A stretch of 16,955 bases of DNA from an uncultured archaeon (GTDB lineage Archaea; Asgardarchaeota; Heimdallarchaeia; Heimdallarchaeales; Heimdallarchaeaceae): assembly GCA_964549075.1 (NCBI GenBank), contig CAZJUB010000057.1, positions 1 to 16,955 of the forward strand, read 5' to 3'. A program made the translations under genes and the position numbers. Below are positions 920-16,300 of the stretch, piece by piece. The notes beneath the pieces are model-generated. The model was given only the letters and a program-made list of their open reading frames with translations, was not told the origin of the DNA and ran no database searches. Position 1 is the stretch's first letter, and every line of letters starts with the position of its first letter.

Positions 920-2254
920 TTAAAGTAGATTAAGTTCATCGAATAAATCAGTCAGAAATTTTGCTCTTTCTGGTTTTACATTGATAAAGTTAAGAATCAT
1001 TATCTTGATGAATTTCTTAATCTCCATCTCAAAATCTCTATTATCAGGTATATCTACTGATCCAAAACATATGCTAAGCTGTTGAACCAGTTCTTCTTCC
1101 TCCTTTTCAGTTAAATCAGACAAGAATGGTTTGTATAAGTGAGCTGCAAAAGTCAAGATAAATTCAAAACCTGTAAAACCAAACATGTTTAAGCTTTTCA
1201 TTAGAATTAGGATGAAACGGTTAAAAATGAAGGTACCAAAATTTCTCAGTATTATGGAATAAATTCGGTTCTTAGAATCTTCATCTAGTTTGGTACATAT
1301 TGTGTCGATCATCACTGACCATATTTCAATGAAGTTTTGGGGATTGATTATGAATTCTTTTGCGATTGCTTTGAGATAATCTATAGCTATGTTGTTATTC
1401 ATTAACATGTACTCTTCTGAGGTAATGAGCATATAAGTAATGATTTTCAGCTTGAATGCTTTATCTTCAAGATCTGAAAGAGAGAGTTCATCCAATTCTC
1501 TTTCTAAGTTTTCTAGTTTTATCCTATTGTTCTCAGAATCTACATAGAATGATCTATGTGCAAGAGAATTTCGTAATGCTGAATCCATAGCATCAAAAAC
1601 CTTCTCATATTTACCGTTATTATACGAAATGACATTATTTATTCTAAGTTGTCTGTGACCACTTTGAGAGTTAATTCTCGAGTTGATTTTCTCAACATAA
1701 TTACCAAAAAGAAACTCAAAATCACTCACATAGCTATTCGCATAATATTCATAGATATCACCAGAACTAGTTAATAACTGAAATATTTCCAGAATTGGTT
1801 TATAGAAAACCTCATCTATTCTCTTTTCAGAAATAAGTTTGATTACATCTTCTGAAATCGAATCTGGTTCTTGCTTATTTTTATTGATGATAAAAGTAAA
1901 AACCAGAAGAATAGTTCTGAATAATTCTTTTCCAAACCAATAATCGTAGAAATCCGTTCTCTCTTCTTCTGAAAGTTTATCTACGAAATCACCTGTAACT
2001 TCACCAAACTCCTTCCGAAGTTCTGAGATACTTTCATCTAATCTATTAGATTTAATATATCGACCAGCGTATTTGTTCACTCTTGGATGAATCATAAAAA
2101 TCATCGTATCAATGAATAATTTTCTTGGTTTTTGTCTTATTATTTCCAAAAAACCTTCTAAGTTGAATGTTGGACCAAAATGTTCATCTGCAAATGAACT
2201 AAAGAATTTTCTAGATTCATCATCTATAATGTATGACTTTTTTTCTCCTTCCAT
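920..2254 (-). CDS. Hypothetical alpha-helical protein with a HEPN-like RxxxxH motif (putative RNase)
   Basis: 444-aa ORF containing VFDAMDSALRNSLAHRSFYVD (R228-H233, nt 1556-1573), an amphipathic helix followed by R-N-x3-H as in HEPN domains. Confidence 0.7.
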   Translation of the reverse strand: MEGEKKSYIIDDESRKFFSSFADEHFGPTFNLEGFLEIIRQKPRKLFIDTMIFMIHPRVNKYAGRYIKSNRLDESISELRKEFGEVTGDFVDKLSEEERTDFYDYWFGKELFRTILLVFTFIINKNKQEPDSISEDVIKLISEKRIDEVFYKPILEIFQLLTSSGDIYEYYANSYVSDFEFLFGNYVEKINSRINSQSGHRQLRINNVISYNNGKYEKVFDAMDSALRNSLAHRSFYVDSENNRIKLENLERELDELSLSDLEDKAFKLKIITYMLITSEEYMLMNNNIAIDYLKAIAKEFIINPQNFIEIWSVMIDTICTKLDEDSKNRIYSIILRNFGTFIFNRFILILMKSLNMFGFTGFEFILTFAAHLYKPFLSDLTEKEEEELVQQLSICFGSVDIPDNRDFEMEIKKFIKIMILNFINVKPERAKFLTDLFDELNLL

Positions 2255-2288
2255 AAATAGAAGAAATTAATTTTGTTTTTATTTGTTG

Positions 2289-2531
2289 CTATTTAAAAAT
2301 ATGAGATTGGAAGAATTGGTCTAAATCCGACTGTTTCTTGGGACGCATAAAATCCTTCAATTCTTTATCTTTAAGGTCGATGAACCACTGTTTGATGAGT
2401 TTGGTTTCAGGATGAACAACAGATTTAGGGATCCAGATAGGTTGGTCAGTGAAATTAGCCACAAAAGCAAGGAAAGCTTTCTCAGTTTCAAGATCAATCT
2501 TACCAAGCTTATAGGGAGAATATGAGCTCAT
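2289..2531 (-). CDS. Small 'ETEKA...WIPKS...WF' protein, paralog 1 (80 aa), with a C-terminal canonical PIP box
   Basis: Start reassigned from 2615 to the ATG at 2531 (MSSYSPYKLGK...). A TTTATAT box lies 24-30 nt upstream and similarity to paralog 2 covers only this part. Ends KKQSDLDQFFQSHIFK (QxxLxxFF). Confidence 0.75.
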   Translation of the reverse strand: MSSYSPYKLGKIDLETEKAFLAFVANFTDQPIWIPKSVVHPETKLIKQWFIDLKDKELKDFMRPKKQSDLDQFFQSHIFK

Positions 2532-2554
2532 ACTAGTGGAGAAAAAGGTTTTCG

Positions 2555-2564
2555 ATATAAAAAA
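2555..2564 (-). promoter_or_regulatory. Putative archaeal TATA box for a leaderless transcript of 2289..2531
   Basis: Minus strand reads TTTTTTATAT, 24-33 nt upstream of the ATG at 2531, which is the expected archaeal spacing. The AT-rich background lowers specificity. Confidence 0.45.
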
Positions 2565-2665
2565 GAGAGCAAATTGTGCGCGTCTTAATGAATTTTTATT
2601 TTTCACATTGTTCATCAGAATAAATTATGAAATCTTTTAATAGTTTATAAAGTTATAAAGATGAA

Positions 2666-4267
2666 ATGAAGAATACAATCAAAGAAAATTACTGTGATAG
2701 ATTCATAGAGATAACAGAATGTGCAGTAAAAGAGACTATGAATTACTTGAAATCATTAAAGGAGGAGGAACTCGAAAAAAGTAAAATCTTCTTTGATAGC
2801 TATCAAACTTATTGTATAATTAATGAGGGAAGCCCTGAAGAAGGTAGTATGGGTTATGAAACATTAGAACTATATACAATATCAATTTACTCAATAAGAG
2901 ATCTACTCATAAAATACCTAACTTCAGAAAAAAACACACATACTGTTAAAGAGCTAGTTGAGATGGGGAGTTACACAGATACTGAAGCATCGATTTTGAA
3001 TCCTCAATTTACTCTATTTGGTTTTACTTTCAGGATAATATTGGAAGAGATGTTTAAAACAGAAGATATTAACCAGATACAGAAATTGAATGAAATTTCA
3101 TTTGATATAGAACTGTTTAATTGTATAATTTCGGAAATAACTGATTTCGCGGTGAAAGATGAACTAGAATGTGAGTATTATTATTTTATCTTTGGTCCCC
3201 CTTTGCAAGGTAAAGATGATTTCTTCAATGAAGAAATGCAAAGCATGATAACAATTCCGAATAATAAAAAAAGGGAGGATTTAATAAGAAAATTTAATTT
3301 TAAGAAAGGAATTTATGGCTCGGGAAAAACTTGGGAACAAACTCATGCCATTATGGGATGTTCAGGTTGGATATCTGGAAAAATAAGGATTAAAACACCA
3401 AATTTCGATGATAATGGTTCTGTTCTTAAAGAAGTAAAACTCCCCTCTCCAAAATATATTCAAGAAGCTTTCAATCTTTTAAGTGAAAATATAGATATTC
3501 ACTTTGTTAGTATTCCTAGTAATTATAATTTGTATTCAATTTATATCTATCCAGAAAGTGACAAGGTACGATATGCATTAGAACGTCTTGGAAGAAGAAG
3601 CTTTCCTAAATGGTTGGAAGAGGTTGTTTTTTTCCCAATTGGAGAAGAGAAATTTATGTTGGATGAGACTAATTTATTCTTTATCCGAGGATATCCAGAA
3701 ATGAGAATGAAATTATCTAAAACATCAATTGAAGAACTAATATTTACTAGATACATTAACCTAATAACCATATCAAACAGCATGAATGTAATTCTTGAAG
3801 CATGTATAATTCTTGAAACATTATTAACAACAGAACCAAAGGAATTGGGATTTCAGTTAAGAGTAAAACTTGCAGTTTTATTAGGTGAGGATTATAAACA
3901 GAAAAAATTCATTCAAGATGTAACTAAAATAATCTATGAAATTAGAAGTGATATAGTTCATAATGGAGGACATAAATCAGAGAAGAAGTCGAGAAAATTA
4001 GGTGGATTGATTAGAACTTCTAAACTATCCAAACAATTAGTCAAATTACTACTCTTAAGACTTATAACTGTTGAAGAGGGCAAATTGAGTATAATTAAAA
4101 GGGATGAACTAGTTACTCAGCTTGATAATTACATGATTGGAGAGAAAACGGAAATCAATTCTAATGTATATTTTGAGAAAAGAAGAAAAGAGTTTTTCGC
4201 AAGTATTCTTGTAGATCAGCAATTATCCATTCTTCTAAATAAACACACTAATGGGGAGAAAAATTAA
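2666..4267 (+). CDS. ApeA-like HEPN domain protein (C-terminal HEPN RNase, long uncharacterised N-terminus)
   Basis: 533-aa ORF. C-terminal IILETLLTTEPKELGFQLRVKLAVLLG...IIYEIRSDIVHNG matches the ApeA-like HEPN pattern (LE.L...EL..R.A.LL...Y..RS..VHG). R427-H432 at nt 3944-3961. Confidence 0.8.
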   Translation: MKNTIKENYCDRFIEITECAVKETMNYLKSLKEEELEKSKIFFDSYQTYCIINEGSPEEGSMGYETLELYTISIYSIRDLLIKYLTSEKNTHTVKELVEMGSYTDTEASILNPQFTLFGFTFRIILEEMFKTEDINQIQKLNEISFDIELFNCIISEITDFAVKDELECEYYYFIFGPPLQGKDDFFNEEMQSMITIPNNKKREDLIRKFNFKKGIYGSGKTWEQTHAIMGCSGWISGKIRIKTPNFDDNGSVLKEVKLPSPKYIQEAFNLLSENIDIHFVSIPSNYNLYSIYIYPESDKVRYALERLGRRSFPKWLEEVVFFPIGEEKFMLDETNLFFIRGYPEMRMKLSKTSIEELIFTRYINLITISNSMNVILEACIILETLLTTEPKELGFQLRVKLAVLLGEDYKQKKFIQDVTKIIYEIRSDIVHNGGHKSEKKSRKLGGLIRTSKLSKQLVKLLLLRLITVEEGKLSIIKRDELVTQLDNYMIGEKTEINSNVYFEKRRKEFFASILVDQQLSILLNKHTNGEKN

Positions 4268-4294
4268 TATAAAAACCGTCTTAGGTCAAAATTG

Positions 4295-4567
4295 TTAAAC
4301 ATTATCAGAAAACAAAGATAGTTTGGTTTGAACCATTTTCTTCTCTTGTTTTTTCCACTCTCTTTTCCCTTCCTTGATTTGCTTGATAAACCATTTCTTG
4401 ATTCGTAATTGTTTATCAACAACAGACTTAGGGATCCAGAGAGGTTCATCAGTAAGGCCGGAAATAGTAGCATAGTAAGAGTTAACAGTTTCAGCAAGAA
4501 GGTAATCAATAGAATAATCAGAGAAAGAAGGATCAGCAGGAGGAATATCTTCGAAAACCATAAACAC
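4295..4567 (-). CDS. Small 'WIPKS' protein, paralog 2 (88-90 aa), with a C-terminal PIP-like motif
   Basis: LAETVNSYYATISGLTDEPLWIPKSVVDKQLRIKKWFI aligns with paralog 1 LETEKAFLAFVANFTDQPIWIPKSVVHPETKLIKQWFI. Ends MVQTKLSLFSDNV. Start is GTG 4567 or ATG 4561. Confidence 0.75.
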   Translation of the reverse strand: MFMVFEDIPPADPSFSDYSIDYLLAETVNSYYATISGLTDEPLWIPKSVVDKQLRIKKWFIKQIKEGKREWKKQEKKMVQTKLSLFSDNV

Positions 4568-4635
4568 TTTCAGAGAAGAAAGAAGAAAGAAAGTATAAAA
4601 AGACCAAAATATAGTATTAGGTCGATGATTAGCTC

Positions 4636-6972
4636 TTGAGTTCTAAAAATAAAAGTAAATCTAAAGGATATTGGAAAGGCAAAATAGGATTAGAAAGGGC
4701 AGAAAAAGAGATTTTGCAACTCAAAGGGGAATTAGGTAGGACACCTAAATTAAGAGAAGTAGGAGGGATATACAAAGCGATAACTTCTGGCTGTTGGACA
4801 GAGTATGGAATTAATACTTGGTCGGAACTATTAGAATATTTACAAATAGAATCCTCTACAAGTGAGAGGATAAAATGGAAAGGAGAGAAAGGATTAGAAC
4901 AAGCTAAGAAAGAATATATCCGAATTTCGAGAAAACTGAAAAAACGACCAACACAACATGATATTTCAGGAATTACTAAAGCGATTAAAAGAGGAGTTTG
5001 GGTAGAATTTGGTATAGAGGAGTGGGATGATTTTGTTATTGCTTGTGGTTTTAAACCTGAAGCTAAAAAGGGAAAATGGATGGGAGAGAAAGGATTGGAA
5101 AATGCTGTAAGAGAAATTAACAATTTCTATGAAATCCATAATAAAGTTCCAACAAGTAGTAATGTCTCTGCAGGAATAATAGACCGAGCTGAAAAAGGAC
5201 ATTGGAAGGAATATGGAATAAGTTCATGGAATGAACTGTTGAAGTATTGTGGGTACGAAGTGCATATAGAACAGGGGAAATGGAGAGGAAAAGAGGGACT
5301 AGAAAGAGCGAAAAGAAAGATAGTGGAATACAGGCAAAAACACGAAAAGAATCCAACTACATTAACAAAAGGATTTAGAAGTCTTTCAAAATGCGCAAAT
5401 TCAGATTATTGGAAAAAGTATGGTGTCAGAAATTGGGGTGATCTTTTAGATTATTGTGGACTAGAGCCAAATAAATTACCAACTGTATGGGGGGGAGAGG
5501 AGGGGTTGGAGAAAGCAAAACAAGAAATTCTTAAGTATTATAAAACGCATAACAAAGTTCCTAGAAAAAACAATGTGTCATGGAGAATTTCAGGGGCATG
5601 TCTACAAGGATATTGGAAAGAGTATGGTATATCTTCTTGGAATGATTTATTGAAGAAGTGTGGTCTTAAACCAACTCATGAAGGAGGAAAATGGATAGGA
5701 AAGAAGGGGTTAGAAAAAGCACAAGCAATTCTTCTAGAACACTATAAGAAGACAGGAAAAACACCAATTAAGAAAGATCTTCCTTCAGGTATAAGTGCTG
5801 CAGCTTTAAGAGGATACTGGAAGAAAGAAGGAATAGAGTCATGGAATGATCTACTAATATTCTGTGGATTAGAGCCTAATGTTGAGAAAGGAAAATGGAT
5901 GGGAAGAAAAGGATTGAAGCTTGCTAAAGAAGAACTAGTGTCAAGATATAAGGAAACTGGCAAAGTGCCTACTTACAGTAATGTTCATGGTGGAATAACT
6001 TCAGCTATAGGTGCTGGCAACTGGCAAGAGTTTGGGATAAGTACTTGGAACGATTTACTTGAATATTGTAATCTTGAACTACATAATATATGGGGTAAAT
6101 GGAAAGGAAGAGAGGGATTAGAAGAAGCAAAAAAAATCGTTTTAAACAAAGCTAAAGAATTAGGTCGAGTTCCTACCAGAAACGATGTAAGTAGGAGCAT
6201 TGAAAGTGCTGCAATAGATGGCCACTGGATAGAATTTGGGGTACAAAATTGGAACGATTTACTTGTTTACTGTGAATTAGAACCAAGTCATGTGATAGGA
6301 ATTTGGGTAGGAAAAGAAGGATTAGAAAAAGCTAAGAAAGAATTAATTGAGCTCTATAATTCACAGGAAAAAACTCCAACAAGGAATGCATTGTCAGCTG
6401 GAATACAGAAAGCTATAGAGAGGGGGGAATGGAAAGAATTTGGTTTTACTGGAAGTACATGGAATGAATTTGTTATTTATTGTGGATTAGAACCAAATAT
6501 TGGTTATCATGGAGATGCATGGTTAAAGTGGGAACAGTGGTGTGAAAAAGCTATTTCACAAATCTATCCACATAAATTTAGAACCAAAATTATGCTTCCA
6601 AATAGAAAATTTCCTGATTATACTGTGAGATTAAATAAAAACAAAATTCTGATAATAGATGCAAAATTAAGCACATTTACAGAGGGAATAAAAAAAGATA
6701 TCAGGAACTATTTAGGATATTGTGATCAACTAGAATTTTGGTGCTTGTTTGGAAAAAGAACAAAGAAAATTATTGACAATAAAGAAATATTATTTCTTAA
6801 GCCAGAAGACATTATAATTAAAATAAAGTTGGAGGAAGAAAGAAAAAAACTTGAAGTAGAAGTAAGAGAACTCTATGAATATTCAAGAAGTGTTTTTAGA
6901 GAAATATCTATGGTTAGAAAAATTAAAGATGATTTTCAAAAAACTTTGGATTTTTGGTTAGGTAAAAATTAA
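4636..6972 (+). CDS. Tandem-repeat protein (9 x ~68 aa, resembling homing-endonuclease-associated repeats) fused to a C-terminal PD-(D/E)XK nuclease and a PIP-like tail
   Basis: 778 aa, TTG start. Repeat consensus W.G..GLE.A...I/L.......K.P.......I..A...G.W.E(Y/F)G...WN(D/E)LL..CGLEP. C-terminal WLKWEQWCEKAI...FPDYTV...LIIDAK supplies the E-helix, PD and D-x-K motifs. Ends FQKTLDFWLGKN. Confidence 0.85.
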   Translation: MSSKNKSKSKGYWKGKIGLERAEKEILQLKGELGRTPKLREVGGIYKAITSGCWTEYGINTWSELLEYLQIESSTSERIKWKGEKGLEQAKKEYIRISRKLKKRPTQHDISGITKAIKRGVWVEFGIEEWDDFVIACGFKPEAKKGKWMGEKGLENAVREINNFYEIHNKVPTSSNVSAGIIDRAEKGHWKEYGISSWNELLKYCGYEVHIEQGKWRGKEGLERAKRKIVEYRQKHEKNPTTLTKGFRSLSKCANSDYWKKYGVRNWGDLLDYCGLEPNKLPTVWGGEEGLEKAKQEILKYYKTHNKVPRKNNVSWRISGACLQGYWKEYGISSWNDLLKKCGLKPTHEGGKWIGKKGLEKAQAILLEHYKKTGKTPIKKDLPSGISAAALRGYWKKEGIESWNDLLIFCGLEPNVEKGKWMGRKGLKLAKEELVSRYKETGKVPTYSNVHGGITSAIGAGNWQEFGISTWNDLLEYCNLELHNIWGKWKGREGLEEAKKIVLNKAKELGRVPTRNDVSRSIESAAIDGHWIEFGVQNWNDLLVYCELEPSHVIGIWVGKEGLEKAKKELIELYNSQEKTPTRNALSAGIQKAIERGEWKEFGFTGSTWNEFVIYCGLEPNIGYHGDAWLKWEQWCEKAISQIYPHKFRTKIMLPNRKFPDYTVRLNKNKILIIDAKLSTFTEGIKKDIRNYLGYCDQLEFWCLFGKRTKKIIDNKEILFLKPEDIIIKIKLEEERKKLEVEVRELYEYSRSVFREISMVRKIKDDFQKTLDFWLGKN
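4672..6507 (+). repeat. Nine coding tandem repeats of ~204 nt (67-69 aa)
   Basis: The repeat-initial Trp codons are at 4672, 4876, 5077, 5281, 5488, 5692, 5896, 6100 and 6304. Conservation is clear in protein and visibly diverged in DNA. Confidence 0.95.
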
Positions 6973-7146: not shown

Positions 7147-10100
7147 TTGTTTGATATGGACTATGCAGATTTAGTAAGAACGGATCTTCCACCTTGTGTC
7201 TTAATAAAGCAATTTCTTGACTCAGAAAAAATAGTTAAATCAAGGACTTTTCCAGTATTTGTTGGTTATTTGGATGAAGTTATTGAGATAGCTAGAACCT
7301 GTTTCATTACAGAAGAAAATACTGAACAGCTTAAGTCATATTTTGAACATTTAGAAAGAGAAATAGAAGAGAATAAGAGTCGGGATAATTCTGAAGAAGT
7401 ATCTTTAGAAGGATGTATATTAATTAATGAATTCGTTGAAAGGTTTCCATCTCTAAAATATGCTTTTATGGGAGCACATTATAGGTTTCGAGCTAAAGAG
7501 AACGAAGAAGTATCCTTTGATATATCAGTCGTAGGATTGCACCCTGTTCAACATATTTCGATAGATGCTTACGAAGATTATGAAGCAATTCAATCAGAAA
7601 TTGTCTCACAAGCTAAGTTAAAACTTAAATCAGCTGAATTCTTCAAAGAAGCTCAAGGGACAAATCTGATGTATCGTATGGAGAAGGCATTTGGGAAAGA
7701 TTCTCTATTTGGTTATATAGCACGAAGAAACATATCAGAGAGTACTAGAGAAAAAGAGAGAGAGAATAAAGTAATCCAACCATTAATAAATGAATTAGAA
7801 AAAGTTGTAGAGGAAAATAAGGTCATATTGAATAAAATCCCTTATACAGAAATCCTACTAACTTATGATAAGAACACGAAAAGAGGAGGGTTTAATTTCC
7901 CAAAAGGTAGAATAGACCTTGATAATCTAATCTATTATGACGGAGAGATAGATTACAAAAAGATAGATGAATGGGGGATCTCAAATAATTACACCAAAAC
8001 CGAAGAAACAATTGTTCGATTTCTTACTAAAATTGACCAAGAGATTAATAACAAAAACATAGCACTTTCAGTCATATACTTACTCCTACAAATCTACAAT
8101 AAACGTGAATTTAATGAAAAGAGACCTATGGGAGGGATTCCAAGTTTCTATTATGAACCAGCTGCATTATTAGGACAAGGCTTTCAAGATTTTAGAAAAA
8201 GTATTCAAATTACAGAATCTCTCTATTCAAAGTACCATCTCAAATATTTGGATGATTTGTTTAAGAAAACCTTTGAGATATTTAATTCAGCATTTAGAAA
8301 CTTGATAGGTCACGCATATTGGATTAGTCAATATGAAGAACCTTTTTACGAAGAAGTAGTAGATGTATTTTTGGCACTTCTAATCTCAAGATGGTTAATA
8401 ATCTATAATCCAGAAAGAATAAAAGAAGTGTTCCAATTATTAAGAGAATTCTTTAAAAAATTCTTTGTGTTTAAACAACTTGATGAAAGAGTATCTCAAT
8501 ATCTAAAAGCTTTATTCAAGTATAAATTAACCGAATTTGTTCAAGATAATAGAATCTTGAGTGATTTGTTTGAGAAAAAAAGAGAAGAAACCTATGTCTT
8601 TGAAGAGGATATAAACACACTAATTGGAGAAATACAAAACAAAAACACTTTCCTTGAATGTAAAGACTTCCTTAATCACATTTTTACTTCAAATGAAGTT
8701 ACTCTTCGTTCATTCATTTATAGATTAATGGAAGAATGGGAAGAAGATGTAGCCAACTATGCTTTCACAGAAATGATTAGAAGAAACTGGTTCCCAGAAA
8801 CACTAGAAGAACAGATAACTTACAATCTAAGGATTGGTAATTGGGAAGAATTATGTAAAATTGAAGATGAACAAGCGATAAAACATCTTAGGAAAAAATT
8901 GCTAGAAAGAGATGCAAAAGAATCATTCAATATTTATTATAATCGTGACAAAAGAGAGATATTATCTCAGCTTGCTGAAAATAAACTAGCTATTGACCTT
9001 TTTATAGAGATTGCTGATAATGAGGATATAGAACTTAGCTCAACAAGTATATATTCTTTGCAAGAAATAGCACTTAAAGGTAATAAAAAAGCCCTTGACT
9101 ATTTCCTTTCTAAAAAAATAAAGCATCTTACAGATTCTAATGAAGCACCTATTATTTTCTCAATTGGAGAATTAGCTAAAAATGGCAATAAAAAGGCAAT
9201 TGACTTTATTATTGAGTATTCTAAGTTCTTCTTTCAAGAAAAATTATCAGATCTTCAGGTTAGTATTCGAGCAAATCTAATAGAATCAACAAATTTCTTC
9301 AACAAGTTAATTGATTTAATGTTTTGTCTAGATTCTGATGAGATTATTGATTTATTGGTTGAACAAGCTAGAATTGAGAATCCTTTTCAAAGTACTATTC
9401 TGGGAAGACTCTCAGATATCAAAGATAAAAGAGTTGAGAAGTTATTTTTAGATATATATAGAGGTGATTTCACTATCGATTCAAAGAAGATTGTTGCGAA
9501 AGAAATAGGAAAGAAATATGTCAATCATGCAATAACTCTATCAGAAAAAATCATTCTAGAATCTGAATTCTTCACTAATTTTTACAAGGAGGGAAGAGAT
9601 AGAAAAACTCCGAAAGAACTAGTAAATGAGATGTATAGTGATGAACAATCAAAAGAAGATTTTTATCTCCTAAATGAACTAATACAAGGATTAGCTGAAA
9701 ATGGAAGCTATAATGCTTTTGAGTATCTAACATCGCTACTACTACAGCAACATACTAGTGTTATTTGGGATTATACTAACATAGGTTCATCATATTATTC
9801 TTTTAACGAACAGAAAATCACACGTCTTTTAGACATCTATGATAAAATTCCTGAACACTTGAAGATAATTGTAGGTGGAGTTTTTGGAAGGATGTCAGAA
9901 TTACAGAGAAGTAAAAGAAAAGGAGAGATAAGAGCAATTTTAAGAGAACTTCTAGAAAAAACTAAAGGTTCATCGAGCGATTTACATTTAATGTTCGAAA
10001 AACTAATCGTCTTACATCCTCCTGAAAATCAGGATTACAGTGAATTAGAAGAAATGGTAGTAAAATTGTATAAAAACAGTAAAATTAGTATAGGGTCTTA

Positions 10101-12339
10101 TTTTTATTTTAAAATAATGAGGTCTTTTCCAGAAGACTCCAGAAAAAAGATCACCACAATTCTCAAAAAAGATGACTATCACATTTTTAAACACCCACAG
10201 CGAAGAAGAATCCATTTGATAGGTTTGAAAGAACACAATGTAAAGTTAGATGAACCTGAAGTGCTTGAGGGCGATTCAGAAAAGGAATCTACACTATTGA
10301 TAGATGACATCCTTGATTCAGAACAGAAGGAAACAATCAGACAAGAAGTTTTAGACGCATTTAGAAGTATGAGTAAAATAAATCAATTCATCGGGATAAG
10401 AACATTTCTCACTGAAGAAGATGAGATGAAACTTAAGTGGCGTGATGTAGAACAAAGATTATCCAAGAATCCAGAGGAATTTATTCAAGATTTGGAAGAG
10501 ATAATATTTAGTGAGGAAGCAGAAGTTAGACTGAGAAGAATAGCAATTCACGATTATGCTAAGCTATTTTTTGCATATAGTTTTAGTACAAGGAAAAAGG
10601 AGAGAAAGAGAAGAAGGGACAAAATATTACCACTCCTTAAACATGATAACAAGGATATAAGAGCTCAAGTAGTTTATTCTTTGATATTCAAGATAAGATT
10701 TACAGGAGGTCTAGAATTTGAGGAAATTGAAGATGAATTGATTTCTATGAAGGAGAGGTTCATAGAAGCAGTTTTTGATCAACTGAAATATGATAAGAAT
10801 CAGAGAGAGTATTTTGATAGCGAAGATTATTATATCAAACTTCTAGAAGAGGAAGCAGGACTAGAAAATTTCGATATTCTACATGAGATCATTAGAAAGA
10901 TATCGAATGAATACAAGGAAATAAAGAATGTACTTCTAAAATATCTAGATGATTCAGATGTCAGAATAAGATTACTTGCTTTCGAATTATTGATAGCTTT
11001 GGAAAAAGGCTCAGAGAAAATAAGTAAAGATTTGGAAAATGTGATTTCTAGGATGCAAACAGATACAGAAATAGAGAAAAATGAAATATTGAGAATATTA
11101 AAAACTCTAGAAGCCTTTTGGACTTTAGAAAATTTACTATCAAGTCTTCAGAGTAATGACTATTCAATTCGTAAAAAAGCTTTGAAATTAATAGAAAAAA
11201 ATAAAGATGAAAGGTTGGTGGATTTACTAATTGAAGCTTTTCATAAGGAAAATAGTCAGAAACTCCACATTATAGATTCTTTAAAAAAAATTGGTGATAA
11301 AAGAGCTATTCCGCTCTTAATTGAAGGTTTAAAAGACGAAAATAAAAGTGTAAGAACCTATTCTGCATCAGCTCTAAATCTTCTTCAAGCACATGAAGCA
11401 GTTGAACCGCTTATTGAACTTCTTGAAGATGAGGAAACTTCTGTAAGAAAAGCAGCTATTGCTTCCCTTGGAAACCTAGGTGATCAGAAAACAGCGCAAT
11501 TACTAATCCCGTTCCTTCAAGATGAGGATAGTACTGTGAGACATGCCACAGTTGTAGCCCTTGGTTCACTGGGAGATAAGAAAGCAATAGTTCCTCTAGT
11601 TAACCTTCTAAAGGAAGAACAGGATAAGCATCACAAAAGAAGTATCATAAATTCACTTGGTCGTCTAGAAGCTAGTCAAGCAATAGATTTGCTAATAGAA
11701 GAATACAAGGATACAGAATCAACTGTTAGAGTGGCTGCAATAAACGCACTGAGTAACTTTGATGACCCTCGAATTAGACCATTTCTAATAAATGCATTAA
11801 ATGATAACAGTCCAGGACCAATCAAGAGTGCAGTAGAAGCTTTAGCAAAAGAAGGAGTGGAAACATTAAAATCTCTGCTCTCTCACGAAAATGAGTATGT
11901 GGTACAACTAGCTATAGAAGAAATAGCTAAGATAAAATCTAAACCAGCAATTGAAGCATTATTAAATGTCTTGAAAAAGAAGGATTTCAAGTTAAAACAG
12001 AGTGCTATATATGCCTTAAAGGAAAATGGTGATAGTAGTATAGTTGAACCATTAATGGAGATGTTAGTAGAAGAGGGATGGTATAATCGTACAGCTATTC
12101 TAGAAACTATTGAAGAATTCAAGGATGAAAAAATAATAGAGATTGCTTATACTTCCACAATTGAAAGTTACAAGAATGAAACTGATAGTGGAACGAAACG
12201 AAGTATGATTTACTTCTTAGCAGATTTCTTGGAAGAAAGGAGTGAAGAATTTCTAAAAGAGATTCAAGAAATTGAGACAAATTCAGAATTAAAACAACTA
12301 ATTCAAGAAGAATTAGAGGAATTGGAAGAAGAGTTATAA
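7147..12339 (+). CDS. Large HEAT-repeat (PBS-lyase HEAT-like) solenoid protein with an N-terminal HEPN-like motif
   Basis: 1730 aa. Regular ~31-aa repeats from ~11125 onward (e.g. AIPLLIEGLKDENKSVRTYSASALNLL, AVEPLIELLEDEETSVRKAAIASLGNLGD) and degenerate helical repeats from ~8860. TFEIFNSAFRNLIGHAYW (R384-H389) at nt 8296-8313. Alternative start ATG 7156. Confidence 0.85.
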   Translation: MFDMDYADLVRTDLPPCVLIKQFLDSEKIVKSRTFPVFVGYLDEVIEIARTCFITEENTEQLKSYFEHLEREIEENKSRDNSEEVSLEGCILINEFVERFPSLKYAFMGAHYRFRAKENEEVSFDISVVGLHPVQHISIDAYEDYEAIQSEIVSQAKLKLKSAEFFKEAQGTNLMYRMEKAFGKDSLFGYIARRNISESTREKERENKVIQPLINELEKVVEENKVILNKIPYTEILLTYDKNTKRGGFNFPKGRIDLDNLIYYDGEIDYKKIDEWGISNNYTKTEETIVRFLTKIDQEINNKNIALSVIYLLLQIYNKREFNEKRPMGGIPSFYYEPAALLGQGFQDFRKSIQITESLYSKYHLKYLDDLFKKTFEIFNSAFRNLIGHAYWISQYEEPFYEEVVDVFLALLISRWLIIYNPERIKEVFQLLREFFKKFFVFKQLDERVSQYLKALFKYKLTEFVQDNRILSDLFEKKREETYVFEEDINTLIGEIQNKNTFLECKDFLNHIFTSNEVTLRSFIYRLMEEWEEDVANYAFTEMIRRNWFPETLEEQITYNLRIGNWEELCKIEDEQAIKHLRKKLLERDAKESFNIYYNRDKREILSQLAENKLAIDLFIEIADNEDIELSSTSIYSLQEIALKGNKKALDYFLSKKIKHLTDSNEAPIIFSIGELAKNGNKKAIDFIIEYSKFFFQEKLSDLQVSIRANLIESTNFFNKLIDLMFCLDSDEIIDLLVEQARIENPFQSTILGRLSDIKDKRVEKLFLDIYRGDFTIDSKKIVAKEIGKKYVNHAITLSEKIILESEFFTNFYKEGRDRKTPKELVNEMYSDEQSKEDFYLLNELIQGLAENGSYNAFEYLTSLLLQQHTSVIWDYTNIGSSYYSFNEQKITRLLDIYDKIPEHLKIIVGGVFGRMSELQRSKRKGEIRAILRELLEKTKGSSSDLHLMFEKLIVLHPPENQDYSELEEMVVKLYKNSKISIGSYFYFKIMRSFPEDSRKKITTILKKDDYHIFKHPQRRRIHLIGLKEHNVKLDEPEVLEGDSEKESTLLIDDILDSEQKETIRQEVLDAFRSMSKINQFIGIRTFLTEEDEMKLKWRDVEQRLSKNPEEFIQDLEEIIFSEEAEVRLRRIAIHDYAKLFFAYSFSTRKKERKRRRDKILPLLKHDNKDIRAQVVYSLIFKIRFTGGLEFEEIEDELISMKERFIEAVFDQLKYDKNQREYFDSEDYYIKLLEEEAGLENFDILHEIIRKISNEYKEIKNVLLKYLDDSDVRIRLLAFELLIALEKGSEKISKDLENVISRMQTDTEIEKNEILRILKTLEAFWTLENLLSSLQSNDYSIRKKALKLIEKNKDERLVDLLIEAFHKENSQKLHIIDSLKKIGDKRAIPLLIEGLKDENKSVRTYSASALNLLQAHEAVEPLIELLEDEETSVRKAAIASLGNLGDQKTAQLLIPFLQDEDSTVRHATVVALGSLGDKKAIVPLVNLLKEEQDKHHKRSIINSLGRLEASQAIDLLIEEYKDTESTVRVAAINALSNFDDPRIRPFLINALNDNSPGPIKSAVEALAKEGVETLKSLLSHENEYVVQLAIEEIAKIKSKPAIEALLNVLKKKDFKLKQSAIYALKENGDSSIVEPLMEMLVEEGWYNRTAILETIEEFKDEKIIEIAYTSTIESYKNETDSGTKRSMIYFLADFLEERSEEFLKEIQEIETNSELKQLIQEELEELEEEL

Positions 12340-12355
12340 ACCAGTTCTGAGAAAG

Positions 12356-15300
12356 TTGATTGACATGTTAAGAAAATTAGGGAAGAAAGAAGAACTACAA
12401 CTTACTTTGGAAGAATTATTAGAAAAGCTGAAAAATGAAAGTCCTAAAATAGGCTTGAACAAATATCTTAGTTGTCTTGAACAAGGAATTCTGAAAGAGC
12501 TTGATCTTAGTTGTCTTGAACAAAGAATTCTCGAAGAGCTTGTAGTGAATCCTTATCTATTAAGTAAAGATTTAGCTAAGAAAATTGATATAACTGAGGA
12601 GATGATTAAAAAATTATTTAAAAGTTTGAGTACTAAAGGTATTCTCTTATGTCCTTCATTAAATTATTCTACTTCAGATTATTATGAATTTTTTGCGCTT
12701 GGGATTGATAATTTGAGTGATAATAATATAGTTTTCTTTGAAAAGTATGAACTTTTTCCCAGTTCCTCTATAACTAATGGTTTTTCTTCTAAGAAGCTTA
12801 ATAATTCAGCTATATATACCGTGACAAATAAAAAGATAGTTTTTAATTCCAGAATTTTAGCTTTGAAAGTAATAACAGATATAGGTAATGTTTCAATTAG
12901 AACATTATTAAGAATGATTGCAAGATTAAAATACGAAGAGGAAAGTAGAAACTATCGACAAAACTATCGACAAAGTGTTTTTCGGTTTTCACTCTCTAAT
13001 TCAAATAAACTAGCAGGTAAAGAACTGATAAATTTACTCGTCATATCAGAAAAGGAGTTTAGCAATTTTTATGATAAAATTCCATTTATTACAATTGCAT
13101 CTTTTGAAACAATTAATAATTCAGGTAATATTAAATGGTTTACTTTTCTATCTATCTTACCTTATGATATAAATTTTATACGAAAAATCATAAATCGTTA
13201 TATAAATCTTGAAAAAAAGTTCTTTGAAATAGTTATTAATGATGAAAGAAAACAAGTTCTAAAATTAATAGAGGAATCAGTCAAACTAAGTTTTAACGAT
13301 CTAATTAGAGGGAGTCTAGACGAGAGAAATGAAGCAATAAAACAACTAGGTAAGGGATGGGAACGTTGGGAAAGCATTATTTATGTAGAAAAATATTTAC
13401 AAGAAAATCCAACCGAACATGAGGAAATTGCAAAAGCTTTCTTCAAATCACTTTTCGAAAAAAAAGACTTTCTAGATAGGGGAGTTGACAATTCTTCTAT
13501 TTTATATTCTAATATAGCTAAAAAAATTAGATCTGAAGCAATTCTAAATATTTTAGAAAAAGAAGAAAATGAGAAAATTAAGATCTGGATTATAGAATTC
13601 TTAATTAAATTAAAAATTATTAAAATTCAAGAATTCCATACTAACGAGCAGAAAGTCGCTGCATTAAATGTTCTAGGGATTCTAAAAATTCTCAAACTTC
13701 AAATAGACAAGGATAAAAACACAATCACTTCTCCTAATCTTTTATCGAATCTTGAAAATCACAAAACTGTTGAACTTATGATTAACCTGCTTAAAACTAG
13801 AGATAATGAAGTAAAAGAGAACGTAATAAGAGTTTTAGGCTTATTAGATCCAAGTGTGTTAGAAAAAATATTAGAACCTTTAATATTAACAATGTTAGAT
13901 GAAGAAGATAATAAGATCAGAAAGATGACAATAGGACTCTTGATGAAATTTAAAAGAAATGTAATGGAAACATTAATGACTTTAGTTGAGCAAGAAAGAA
14001 TAACAGAAACTGAAAAATTGATAGTTATTCATGAGCTAAAATTGTGGAATATTGCTGATATTACAAAAAAAGTATTAGAAAAAGAAATGGTTAACCCAAT
14101 AGATGCTCTTGAAGCCTTAGTTCGATTAGGTGATAAAGATTCATTACAAAAACTATATGACATTCACCCACAAAACCAATATGGTTATGGTATTTATCCA
14201 ACTCATTGGGATTTAAATGATGTTGAAAAAGCATATGAAGCTCTTGTTCGACTTGATAAAGAAGGTTTTATTGAAAATCATGAAGAAAGACTTATAGAAA
14301 GCATGAAGTATAAACTGCGGGAAGTTACAGATGATAACTCTGCTAAAGTATTGTTAGAAACCTATGTAAATCAATTGAAAGAATGCAAATCTATCAAAGC
14401 CATTTTATGTTTTCTTGATCCTGATCAATTTGATGATGAGATTAGCGTTAAAGTTTTAGCTAATTCAAATAATAAAGATATTCTTTCTGTGTTGAAACAA
14501 GAACTAACTAATGATTGGCGAACAAGAATACTTATCCAATTACTGAAAAATAAAGATAAAGATATAAGAAAAATTGCTGTAGAAACCTTGGGGAAGTTAC
14601 ACGACAATACAGCAGTAGACCCACTTATTGAAGTACTGAAGGATGAAAATGAGGAAATAAGAAAAACTGCTAGTTATGTTTTGAGGTTTTTTGGAGACAA
14701 ATGTGCAGTTGAACCATTAATCCAGACCCTAGAAGACAAAAATTCAGATGTAAGAAAACAAGCCATTGATTCTTTGGGATTTTTTAGAGATAGAAGAGCA
14801 TTAGAGCCACTTATAGAAACATTGAAGGATAAAGACCCATCAGTAAGACTGACTACTATCGATACTTTTTGGCAATTTTCAGATATAAAAATAATAAATC
14901 CACTTATCGAAGTACTGAAGGATGAAAATGAGGAGGTAAGAAAAACTGCTATTCATACTTTGGGGCTTTTCAAATACTATAGCACATCAATACCTCATAT
15001 TAAAGTACAGAAGGATGGGGAAGAAAAACTGATTGCTATCAATACTTTTGATAGTTTAAGGGATTTTCCAGATATGAAAGTTATAGATTCACTTATCAAA
15101 TCACTGAAAGATGAAAATAAAGAAGTAAGAAAAACTACTATTGGTACTTTAAAACATTTTCCAGATAAGAAAGTTATAGATTCACTTATCGAAGAACTGA
15201 AAGACGAGAACTGGGAATTAAAAATGGCTATTGCTTATGTCTTAATAGATATGTTGTGCAATTTAAGAGTAGTAGAACCATTAAGACATGCGCTAGAAGA

Positions 15301-15358
15301 TGAAACCGATTTTCAGACAATGTGGGTGATTTGCTACATACTTTATGTACTAGATTGA
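12356..15358 (+). CDS. HEAT-repeat protein with an N-terminal winged helix-turn-helix (AsnC/MarR-like)
   Basis: 1000 aa, starting 16 nt after the previous stop. LEQRILEELVVNPYLLSKDLAKKIDITEEMIKKLFKSLSTKGIL is a wHTH pattern. C-terminal repeats such as AVDPLIEVLKDENEEIRKTASYVLRFFGD. Alternative start ATG 12365. Confidence 0.85.
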   Translation: MIDMLRKLGKKEELQLTLEELLEKLKNESPKIGLNKYLSCLEQGILKELDLSCLEQRILEELVVNPYLLSKDLAKKIDITEEMIKKLFKSLSTKGILLCPSLNYSTSDYYEFFALGIDNLSDNNIVFFEKYELFPSSSITNGFSSKKLNNSAIYTVTNKKIVFNSRILALKVITDIGNVSIRTLLRMIARLKYEEESRNYRQNYRQSVFRFSLSNSNKLAGKELINLLVISEKEFSNFYDKIPFITIASFETINNSGNIKWFTFLSILPYDINFIRKIINRYINLEKKFFEIVINDERKQVLKLIEESVKLSFNDLIRGSLDERNEAIKQLGKGWERWESIIYVEKYLQENPTEHEEIAKAFFKSLFEKKDFLDRGVDNSSILYSNIAKKIRSEAILNILEKEENEKIKIWIIEFLIKLKIIKIQEFHTNEQKVAALNVLGILKILKLQIDKDKNTITSPNLLSNLENHKTVELMINLLKTRDNEVKENVIRVLGLLDPSVLEKILEPLILTMLDEEDNKIRKMTIGLLMKFKRNVMETLMTLVEQERITETEKLIVIHELKLWNIADITKKVLEKEMVNPIDALEALVRLGDKDSLQKLYDIHPQNQYGYGIYPTHWDLNDVEKAYEALVRLDKEGFIENHEERLIESMKYKLREVTDDNSAKVLLETYVNQLKECKSIKAILCFLDPDQFDDEISVKVLANSNNKDILSVLKQELTNDWRTRILIQLLKNKDKDIRKIAVETLGKLHDNTAVDPLIEVLKDENEEIRKTASYVLRFFGDKCAVEPLIQTLEDKNSDVRKQAIDSLGFFRDRRALEPLIETLKDKDPSVRLTTIDTFWQFSDIKIINPLIEVLKDENEEVRKTAIHTLGLFKYYSTSIPHIKVQKDGEEKLIAINTFDSLRDFPDMKVIDSLIKSLKDENKEVRKTTIGTLKHFPDKKVIDSLIEELKDENWELKMAIAYVLIDMLCNLRVVEPLRHALEDETDFQTMWVICYILYVLD
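12465..12542 (+). repeat. 39-bp in-frame tandem duplication
   Basis: atcttagttgtcttgaacaaggaattctgaaagagcttg / atcttagttgtcttgaacaaagaattctcgaagagcttg (36/39 identical), encoding LSCLEQGILKEL / LSCLEQRILEEL. Confidence 0.95.
12949..12972 (+). repeat. 12-bp perfect tandem duplication
   Basis: aaactatcgaca x2, encoding NYRQNYRQ. Confidence 0.9.
14621..15210 (+). repeat. Recently duplicated HEAT units (93-nt periodicity)
   Basis: 14621-14672 vs 14900-14951 are 49/52 identical and 279 nt (3 x 93) apart. ttttccagata(t/a)gaaagttatagattcacttatc recurs at 15064 and 15157, 93 nt apart. Confidence 0.85.
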
Positions 15359-15487
15359 TTTTATCTTAGAGAAGAAAACTGGATGAAGTTGATTTATAGG
15401 TTAGAAAAGGGAGATACTTACCAATACTCAAAGAAGAAGCAGAGAATAATTTAGACGTAGAGTTCAAGTTTAGGTTATATCAAGTTA

Positions 15488-16300
15488 TTGCAAGATGAAA
15501 ACAGAAAACTAAGAATGTATGCAGTGCAAACGCTAGGGCAACTGGGGGATTTAAGAACTGTTAACCCACTTCTCCAAATTTTGAAAAGCGAAGACCGTTT
15601 TGTAAGTGGACATGCAGCGCTAGCATTAGGACAATTGAGAGATCTTCGATCGGTTGCTCCATTAATCCAAGTGTTGAATGATAAAAATGAAGATGTAAGA
15701 TTACGTGTTGTAGAGGCCTTAGGACAACTAGGGGATCCAAAAGCGATTGAACCACTCATTCAAGCATTGGAGGATAAAGGAAGAAAAGTAAAAGAAATCG
15801 CTTTTTCTGTATTAGTAAAATTGGGAGATCCAAATGTAGTTGATCTGTTTATCCAAAGGTTGAAGGATGAAGACAATAAGGTAAGATGGTATGCTGTGCG
15901 AGCTCTTGAACATTTAGGGAATCCGAGAGCGGTTGAACCTCTAATTCAAGCGCTTAAGGATAAAGACTTTATAGTTGTGGGTTCTGCTGCTCATGCGTTA
16001 GGACAAATAAAGGATCCAAGAGTTATTGGACCACTAATCCAAGCACTAAATGAAGATGATCGTTTTGCTGTGAGTGCTTTAGATCAGATGAGAGAACCTC
16101 AGTTTATTGAATCTTTTATTCAAGCATTGGGGAATGAGAACAAGAAGATAAGATTGTATGTTATTTCTGTGTTACAACAATTCAATGGTAAAAGAGTTAT
16201 TCTTCCTCTACAACAGGCTTTAGAAAAGGAGAAAGATAGAACTGTTAAAGAGATTATCAGAGGTACAATACAGATAATAAAACAGAATCTGAATAACTGA
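15488..16300 (+). CDS. HEAT-repeat (PBS-lyase HEAT-like) protein, repeats only; may be a 5'-truncated or split gene
   Basis: 270 aa with about eight regular units (AIEPLIQALEDK..VK..A...L..LGDP). The TTG start falls inside a repeat unit (upstream in-frame ...LGYIKL-LQDENRKLR). Same frame as 12356..15358. Confidence 0.75.
   Translation: MQDENRKLRMYAVQTLGQLGDLRTVNPLLQILKSEDRFVSGHAALALGQLRDLRSVAPLIQVLNDKNEDVRLRVVEALGQLGDPKAIEPLIQALEDKGRKVKEIAFSVLVKLGDPNVVDLFIQRLKDEDNKVRWYAVRALEHLGNPRAVEPLIQALKDKDFIVVGSAAHALGQIKDPRVIGPLIQALNEDDRFAVSALDQMREPQFIESFIQALGNENKKIRLYVISVLQQFNGKRVILPLQQALEKEKDRTVKEIIRGTIQIIKQNLNN

Follow-up and report, generated by a model that had tools for sequence, protein, structure and literature searches.

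The window analysed here is a 16,955-nt stretch of DNA, contig C57 of the genome (3.2 Mb, 217 contigs, ~30% G+C) of an uncultured archaeon of the Heimdallarchaeaceae, in which five genes, U2, S1, L1, S2 and L2, are followed by three very large HEAT-repeat genes. Two small proteins, S1 and S2, and a large nuclease, L2, end in motifs resembling the PCNA-interacting protein (PIP) box, with which proteins dock on the sliding clamp PCNA. Judging from their sequences, the tails of S1 and L2 probably dock on PCNA, and docking of the S2 tail is less probable than that of the other two. We favour, as a reasonably likely reading, that positions 920-6972 hold strain-variable genes of the defence-island type, three of whose products are independent, PCNA-docking accessory proteins, the S proteins being clamp occupiers and L2 a nuclease placed by the clamp.

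PIP-type tails of S1, S2 and L2

The original prediction, made from this DNA without database searches, placed motifs of this kind, preceded by basic residues, at the C-termini of three neighbouring proteins, and the translated open reading frames (ORFs) bear this out for all three (Table 1). The motifs lie 6 (S1), 3 (S2) and 3 (L2) residues from the stop, each after basic residues. Measured against the PIP consensus (Q at position 1, an aliphatic L, I or M at 4, an aromatic residue at both 7 and 8), S1 fits fully, and its octapeptide recurs in five clusters of S homologues. The L2 tail, where positions 7 and 8 are W and L, passes only a relaxed pattern, and the S2 tail, with S at position 8 (F-S), fails even that. 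Here and below, the relaxed pattern is Q..[LIMV]..[FYWH][FYWLIMV] and the strict pattern Q..[LIM]..[FYW][FYW], both sought in the last 16 residues.

Such tails are found on few proteins of the host. Among 2963 host ORFs of at least 100 aa, 24 (0.8%) carry a relaxed and 11 a strict tail, and the bearers include PolB (QKSLDNWF), a Y-family polymerase (QKTLSQFF), the large subunit of RFC (QSSLESFI), Fen1 (QKSLDSYF), NreA (QTKLDMFL) and a Hel308 fragment (QKQLDDFF). PolB, Fen1, the RFC large subunit and similar families are established PCNA partners. Thus, a C-terminal PIP motif is rare in this genome and strongly enriched in real clamp clients, families of the PolB and Fen1 type being reviewed as archaeal PCNA partners by MacNeill (2016; PMC4929162). 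The clamp itself is encoded by a single PCNA gene on contig C98, and 58 of the 61 genomes searched from the host's class likewise have one. The host is an archaeon with PCNA and not a bacterium, as the docking idea presupposed.

Among the other bearers of strict C-terminal PIP boxes are a DUF72 protein (C74:500-1366, QQKLADFF), a DUF2797 protein (C50:4014-4937, QQSLSEFF) and an unannotated 341-aa protein (C9:48320-49345, QTLLESFF), all three of which are candidate uncharacterised PCNA clients by their sequences. The host PolB gene (C2:20149-24192, locus L093), whose product ends in its PIP box, encodes an intein that bears a LAGLIDADG domain.

S1 and S2, which share 37% identity over 67 aa, are paralogues, and the tails of their family are conserved. 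Searching 5.8 billion proteins with an S profile yields 112 proteins of 50-149 aa, homologues in an unannotated family of ~75-90-aa proteins, with no Pfam domain in any of them; all named sources are metagenome-assembled genomes of Heimdallarchaeota, Asgard or Thorarchaeota. A relaxed PIP motif is present in 84 of the 112 and a strict one in 40, and in 55 of those 84 the motif is the exact C-terminal end. The 28 homologues lacking the relaxed motif comprise truncated or frameshifted entries, variants with one aromatic residue, S2 among them, and four PIP-less proteins with ...PPxW tails. When only full-length members are considered, 80 of 86 carry Q-x-x-[LMI]-x-x-[FY], with Q in 80/80, L, M or I at position 4 (70, 8 and 2 proteins) and F or Y at position 7 (73 and 7). 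Position 8 of these 80 is F in 38, L in 14, M in 13, I in 8, T in 3 and S in 2, and the two residues before the motif are mostly K. The x positions differ between subfamilies, whose tails read KKQSGLEDFM, KKQSDLDQFF, KKQKTMTDF, VQTKLKxFF or KQTTLADYF; most subfamily-B relatives of S2 end in QTKLKxFF. Key positions that are kept while the x positions vary by subfamily are a signature of selection on contact residues. The PIP tail is, by sequence, the most conserved linear feature of the S family, and it is the only functional element that we can recognise in these proteins, where it takes the canonical form.

The original prediction also took the large protein for a nuclease, and the motifs of L2 agree. 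Residues 13-618 of L2 form nine tandem HNH_repeat units of ~68 aa (PF18780, scoring 42.5 bits where the cut-off is 26), which its relatives carry too, and residues ~620-745 form a PD-(D/E)xK domain in which WE...PD...DAK...Y..C..LEFW is conserved across 36 relatives. The nuclease domain is therefore of the PD-(D/E)xK and not the HNH type, and the predicted catalytic site is present as PD-(D/E)xK motifs. Against Pfam at E<=0.01, full-length L2 matches HNH_repeat only, and its C-terminal part alone gives a weak RmuC match (E 0.01). With the last 173 residues of L2 as the query, an exhaustive search returned 69 representatives. The PIP tail is kept in all four of the closest sequences, the query included (QKTLDFWL, QRTLDYWL, QKTLDYWI and QTQLSDFL). 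Among 58 relatives in which the nuclease domain is C-terminal, 12 carry a relaxed PIP motif and 18 have, within their final 20 residues, Q..[LIMV]..[FYW], compared with 1.0% and 1.7% of host ORFs of at least 200 aa; leaving out the four closest sequences still gives binomial tails below 1e-7. Taken together, the frequencies in S proteins (80/86 full-length members) and in close relatives of L2 (4/4) show that the tails are genuine conserved PIP-type motifs, and the comparison of homologues that had been proposed as a check on the prediction comes out in its favour.

A PD-(D/E)xK domain distantly related to that of L2 is also found, fused to multiple C2H2 zinc fingers, in a 388-aa host protein (C2:49001-50167, minus strand; locus L102), and 16 of the genus's 24 other genomes encode proteins of ~390 aa that match its domain.

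Table 1. Features of the window and, in the last four rows, a family recurring beside S genes elsewhere; positions are those of the window unless a locus or contig is named.
Feature	Position	Strand	Description
S1 PIP box QSDLDQFF	2310..2333	-	strict consensus; preceded by RPKK; protein ends in ...RPKKQSDLDQFFQSHIFK
S2 PIP-like tail QTKLSLFS	4307..4330	-	degenerate (Q, L and one aromatic); protein ends in ...KKMVQTKLSLFSDNV
L2 PIP-like tail QKTLDFWL	6937..6960	+	residues 768-775; protein ends in ...DDFQKTLDFWLGKN
U2	920..2254	-	444 aa; orphan, accessory; contains the Rx4H-like motif LRNSLAH; in the same variable stretch as S1-L2
S1	2289..2531	-	80 aa; globular core of ~50 aa, Lys-rich linker, C-terminal PIP box; mechanical ORF reaches 2615
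L1	2666..4267	+	533 aa; divergent from S1; lacks a PIP tail
S2	4295..4561	-	88 aa; subfamily B, paralogue of S1; mechanical ORF 4295-4567
L2	4636..6972	+	778 aa; HNH_repeat units, PD-(D/E)xK nuclease domain, helical linker, PIP tail
S1 TATA-like box TTTTTTATAT	2553..2564	-	24-33 nt 5' of the S1 ATG at 2531
S2 TATA box TTTATAC	4593..4599	-	upstream of S2
275-aa RKVLSEFF family	L051:3989-4813	-	
275-aa RKVLSEFF family	L053:8843-9694	+	
275-aa RKVLSEFF family	L048:7045-7872	+	
275-aa RKVLSEFF family, fragment	host C108:3700-3840		

Core, distribution and genomic setting of the S family

Ahead of the Lys-rich linker, S proteins share a core of ~50 aa with the pattern ETEKAFLA..F.D.PIWIPKSVV...IKQWFI, in which W, P, K and S are nearly invariant. 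No match was found for S proteins in Pfam (E<=10), NCBIfam or PADLOC, nor for the family profile among PDB sequences (E>=0.63). The ESM Atlas model of one homologue, P0024 (predicted template-modelling score 0.56, predicted local distance difference test 0.72), has as its nearest Atlas clusters by features small hypothetical proteins of Uroviricota, the tailed phages (0.90-0.91, with 202-210 of 256 features in common). By structure, it comes closest to small viral proteins, to barrels of the S1-like and DUF2171-like kinds and to a 240-aa protein of Promethearchaeota. Two PHROGs of unknown function match full-length S members, PHROG 8389 in 48 and PHROG 29577 in 31 of the 86, and a phage contig in IMG/VR encodes a 67-aa protein with the S core and no PIP motif, the only relative there and a distant one. 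Searching GenBank phages by tblastn with S1 and with this phage relative gave no match. On the model and these likenesses, the S core is probably a small phage-type beta-barrel. A WIPKSVI core without a PIP tail also forms the C-terminus of a 240-aa protein in another Asgard family (L041:1420-2142, minus strand; 8 of 68 genomes sampled), where an unannotated N-terminal domain precedes it.

The WIPKSVV segment resembles the (V/I)PK(E/S) segment of AbrB-type proteins, and hhalign aligns the two exactly there. S proteins might then be AbrB/MazE-like or other DNA-binding regulators of the divergent neighbour, with a tail that serves dimerisation or partner binding, and 14 of 25 S genes are indeed divergent from the upstream gene across short intergenic gaps. 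We find this highly improbable, given that the Pfam model MazE_antitoxin (PF04014) finds two other host genes and no S gene, that no Pfam model matches S proteins even at E<=10, and that hhalign assigns a probability of 0.4% in both comparisons. The tail, moreover, fits the PIP consensus position by position and stands at the extreme C-terminus after K-K, like those of host Fen1 and RFC. For want of a PF04014 match, and with the hhalign value this low, an AbrB/MazE identity of the core was rejected.

The family is narrowly distributed and is found in many settings. Across 301 genomes of the phylum, strong S matches occur only in the genus of the window (20 of 22 genomes) and in one sister genus (2 of 2), with 1-8 per genome; there are none in four genomes (two of them closed) of three other genera of the family and none in the rest of the order searched. 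About 88 matches, in 32 genomes with a match, stand beside many different genes. An A/T-rich TATA-like box lies ~25-35 nt 5' of the ATG in 25/25 S genes examined and is kept within subfamilies, so by sequence each S gene has its own TATA promoter.

These patterns bear on the claim, made in the original prediction, of one clamp-targeted module in which PCNA loads L2 on replicating (invader) DNA and S1 and S2 are dedicated competitors, antitoxins or adaptors. Its ingredients stand: there are PIP tails, a PCNA and a nuclease domain. Nucleases of the L2 type occur in two of 31 genomes of the family, the host and G115, and every other Asgard family sampled lacks them; in each of the two genomes, the operon that holds the nuclease diverges from a small PIP gene (in the window and in locus L051 of G115). 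A family of ~275 aa also recurs beside S genes, lying directly divergent from them in two loci (L051 and L053), and a fragment of it adjoins an S pseudogene on host contig C108; in G115 a 274-aa gene with its tail, RKVLSEFF, lies between the S gene and the nuclease. Toxin-antitoxin systems that hit a bacterial clamp are known as well, and a report on RipA/RipB (Rosmer) describes it as targeting the bacterial sliding clamp (PMC12795458). What finds no support as stated is the idea that S proteins serve the nuclease. Linkage is variable, the many S matches having unrelated neighbours and 11 of 25 S genes being co-directional with the upstream gene, and L2-type nucleases are found in those two genomes only. 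The S gene beside the nuclease belongs to subfamily B in the window and to subfamily A2 in G115, S genes have promoters of their own, and the gene separating the two S genes in the window, L1, codes for a protein with no PIP tail. A single module is thus distinctly unlikely, and the two co-occurrences would be compatible with a looser functional link between S proteins and nuclease.

The ~275-aa family just mentioned (cl8) carries a CEGxC motif and an acidic C-terminal region, its RKVLSEFF tail is PIP-like and lacks the Q, and it has no Pfam match.

S genes appear to turn over rapidly, and decayed copies are common. Besides S1 and S2, the host genome holds a third intact copy (C41:8042-8314), which ends in QTKLKIFFDTR, and four degraded ones, so that 4 of 7 matches are degraded. 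The 5' half of S2, with ~40 nt upstream of it, is 88% identical to host contig C141:31-195, where the divergent neighbour is another gene. Comparing host contig C41 with contig C1 of G184, we found eight core genes that are syntenic at 64-89% identity, after which an S gene comes next in both genomes (subfamily B at C41:8042-8314; subfamily A1 at L045:7865-8173); the two S genes share just 23% identity, with no relationship between the genes farther on. Going by this comparison, S genes are part of the variable fraction of the genome and can lie at its edge.

Turnover of this kind would also suit S proteins that are no tools of the host and instead travel on integrated mobile elements or viruses, with the islands as cargo; they would hijack or block the PCNA of the host in the service of takeover, anti-defence or addiction. 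The phage-like core, the many copies with decayed ones among them, TnpB genes near S genes, the position of an S gene on the edge of a variable segment, where another subfamily takes its place, and the duplication of the S2 5' end and promoter beside a different gene on C141 all point that way. Against it, no integrase, tRNA target or terminal repeat was found in the window, the S loci examined hold no capsid or packaging genes, and the family has one distant relative in IMG/VR and none in GenBank phages. We regard a mobile-element origin of this sort as unlikely.

The favoured reading, in which S proteins are independent clamp-docking products of variable defence-type regions, draws on what surrounds them. 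We surveyed 21 loci with 25 S genes, and counted as neighbours 77 proteins within two genes of PIP-bearing S genes, a count that leaves out two PIP-less loci and the window itself. None of the neighbours is constant across the loci; 14 of the 25 S genes are divergent from and 11 co-directional with the upstream gene. Among the 77 neighbours are HEPN (two), HEPN_AbiV, YaaC-like (two), NYN (two), Pycsar-type TIR and Schlafen AlbA_2 proteins, a Type I HsdR, a DUF4145 protein, a fragment of an N6-methylase, a DUF7019 protein, a TnpB, a HerA-like ATPase, an AAA_21 ATPase and three MalT-like TPR proteins; 37 have no Pfam match. An OLD-family nuclease in one locus and RiboL-PSP HEPN proteins lie somewhat farther from S genes.

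Several points weigh against this reading. The neighbourhood suggests a variable region of the defence-island type, yet this description comes from 21 loci with no matched control. In S2 and its closest relatives the tail offers a single aromatic residue (F-S/T), and binding by S2 may accordingly be weak or nil. The tail is found on just 12-18 of the 58 distant relatives of L2. A PIP-less S subgroup (4 of the 112 homologues) lies in a conserved metabolic neighbourhood with hydantoinase, aspartate dehydrogenase and AHSA1-like genes in two genomes of the genus, and such a context argues that the S core has a PCNA-independent function. The net charge of the S core is near zero, which is not like that of a DNA binder. 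Finally, L1 may be HEPN-like, on the evidence of one motif.

Two members of the PIP-less subgroup are encoded at L056:7645-7911 (minus strand; tail ...PPAAWSGE) and L057:7977-8252 (minus strand; tail ...PPDWTPSKS).

Gene starts and neighbouring genes in the window

The start of S1 is most likely M29 of the mechanical ORF (nt 2531, giving 80 aa), where homologues begin with MSEYS..., and translation of S2, an 88-aa protein, begins at the ATG at nt 4561. Both starts are fixed by the positions of the TATA boxes, that of S1 lying inside the longer ORF (Table 1). The S1 box predicts a leaderless or short-leader transcript.

The L1 family has six members, five other homologues having been found in the 5.8 billion proteins, and IRSDIVHNGG (Rx4H) is invariant in 6/6, the motif behind its possible HEPN likeness. 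L1 has no match in Pfam, PADLOC or NCBIfam. Compared by hhalign with HEPN neighbours of S genes, it reaches probabilities of 9.8% (AbiV) and 0.2% (RiboL-PSP), neither of which is significant, and its family profile gives only a weak match in PDB (E 0.034, an esterase). Relatedness between L1 and U2 is not significant, and U2 has homologues in 0 of 30 other genomes of the family.

No tRNA, Rfam family, integrase, or terminal or flanking repeats were found in the window. Contigs of four salt-marsh metagenome sets, compared with the window, show no clean deletion of the island; what the comparison brings up is confined to paralogue contigs (4449-4608) and a repeat found in many contexts (12322-12362). 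Two apparent skips were disregarded, as their sides are only 20-21 nt.

The repeat at 12322-12362 is a sequence of ~40 nt that covers the stop of the first HEAT gene and the start of the next. Copies that are 92-97% identical lie on four other host contigs (C99, C163, C37 and C10), and in metagenome contigs both of its flanks run into many different sequences. The HEAT genes occupy 7147-16300 and encode, in tandem, giant proteins of 1730, 1000 and 270 aa. The first two match HEAT-ARM_XIII, WGR_XIII and HEAT_CxxC_PDDEXK in PADLOC, matches that are driven by the repeats, and for the N-terminal region of the 1730-aa protein only 2 of the genus's 24 other genomes hold a homologue. We rejected the HEAT-gene flank as a clean synteny anchor: a homologue in G199 has a subfamily-B S gene 2.6 kb upstream, on the opposite strand and with other genes between.

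Proposed action on the clamp and comparison with known systems

How the docking proteins might act can be sketched from their domains. An S tail would most likely insert into the PIP pocket of PCNA, and the clamp-bound protein would then compete with PolB, Fen1 and other clients, or tether to the clamp whatever its core binds, an action that we liken to that of TIP in Thermococcales or of p21 and PAF15 in eukaryotes. L2 would be an independent nuclease, homing-endonuclease-like or restriction-like, whose PIP tail places it on clamp-loaded DNA under replication or repair, as in NucS. S proteins or L2 may also play a part in virus-host conflict. A bolder scenario, which we hold to be doubtful, has diversifying phage-derived mini-proteins plugging PCNA, either stalling replication once an invader is sensed or serving an invader that hijacks the clamp, with PIP-tailed effectors such as L2 riding PCNA onto replicating foreign DNA. 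If true, it would provide a prokaryotic counterpart of the p21-type blockade and of the PCNA-tethered antiviral factors of eukaryotes.

Docking through PIP boxes is well known, but little of the archaeal PCNA interactome outside its core has been mapped. Our literature searches found no description of the S family, and the main text of a 2025 paper on the Asgard replication machinery contains neither 'PIP' nor 'PCNA-binding'. The family is unannotated, present in multiple copies, located in defence-type islands and encoded here beside a PIP-tailed nuclease. Should binding be true, S proteins would be small natural PCNA ligands for an Asgard clamp, possibly a second example of an archaeal clamp inhibitor after TIP, and they would offer a testable link of replication to virus-host conflict.

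Among known systems, SocAB is, like RipA/RipB, a toxin-antitoxin system that targets the bacterial clamp. S proteins, whose predicted target is likewise a clamp, resemble both in being small and accessory in type; they differ in that those systems target the beta clamp with other folds and motifs, and no toxin-antitoxin pairing is evident for S genes. In eukaryotes, p21(Cip1) and PAF15 are short proteins with a high-affinity PIP box and basic flanks that act by occupying PCNA, and we take the subfamily-A3 tails KKQKTMTDF/Y to resemble the PIP box of p21. S proteins have no homology to either and differ from them in their folded phage-like core, their range of two genera and their island context, all of which argue against an ancestral link to the eukaryotic clamp regulators.

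For L2 the closest likeness is NucS/EndoMS. NucS is an archaeal RecB-like PD-(D/E)xK nuclease whose C-terminal PIP motif binds PCNA (PMC4929162), and L2 shares with it both the nuclease type and the C-terminal motif. In L2, nine HNH_repeat units replace the N-terminal domain of NucS and there is no NucS Pfam match; L2 is moreover rare and accessory, occurring in 2 of 31 genomes of the family, whereas NucS is a widespread repair enzyme.

The nearest parallel to the S proteins is TIP (TK0808 type), a 64-aa PCNA-binding protein, restricted to Thermococcales, that in vitro blocks the stimulation of PolB and Fen1 by PCNA and that is built from a small globular domain described as PH-like, a short linker and a proposed N-terminal PIP motif (PMC4929162). 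S proteins are likewise very small, confined to a single archaeal lineage and composed of a globular domain, a short linker and a terminal PIP motif. Compared with the published description of TIP, they have the PIP box at the C-terminus, in canonical form, and a phage-like WIPKSVV core. Unlike TIP, the S family is multi-copy, with 1-8 copies per genome, and belongs to defence-type islands of Heimdallarchaeia.

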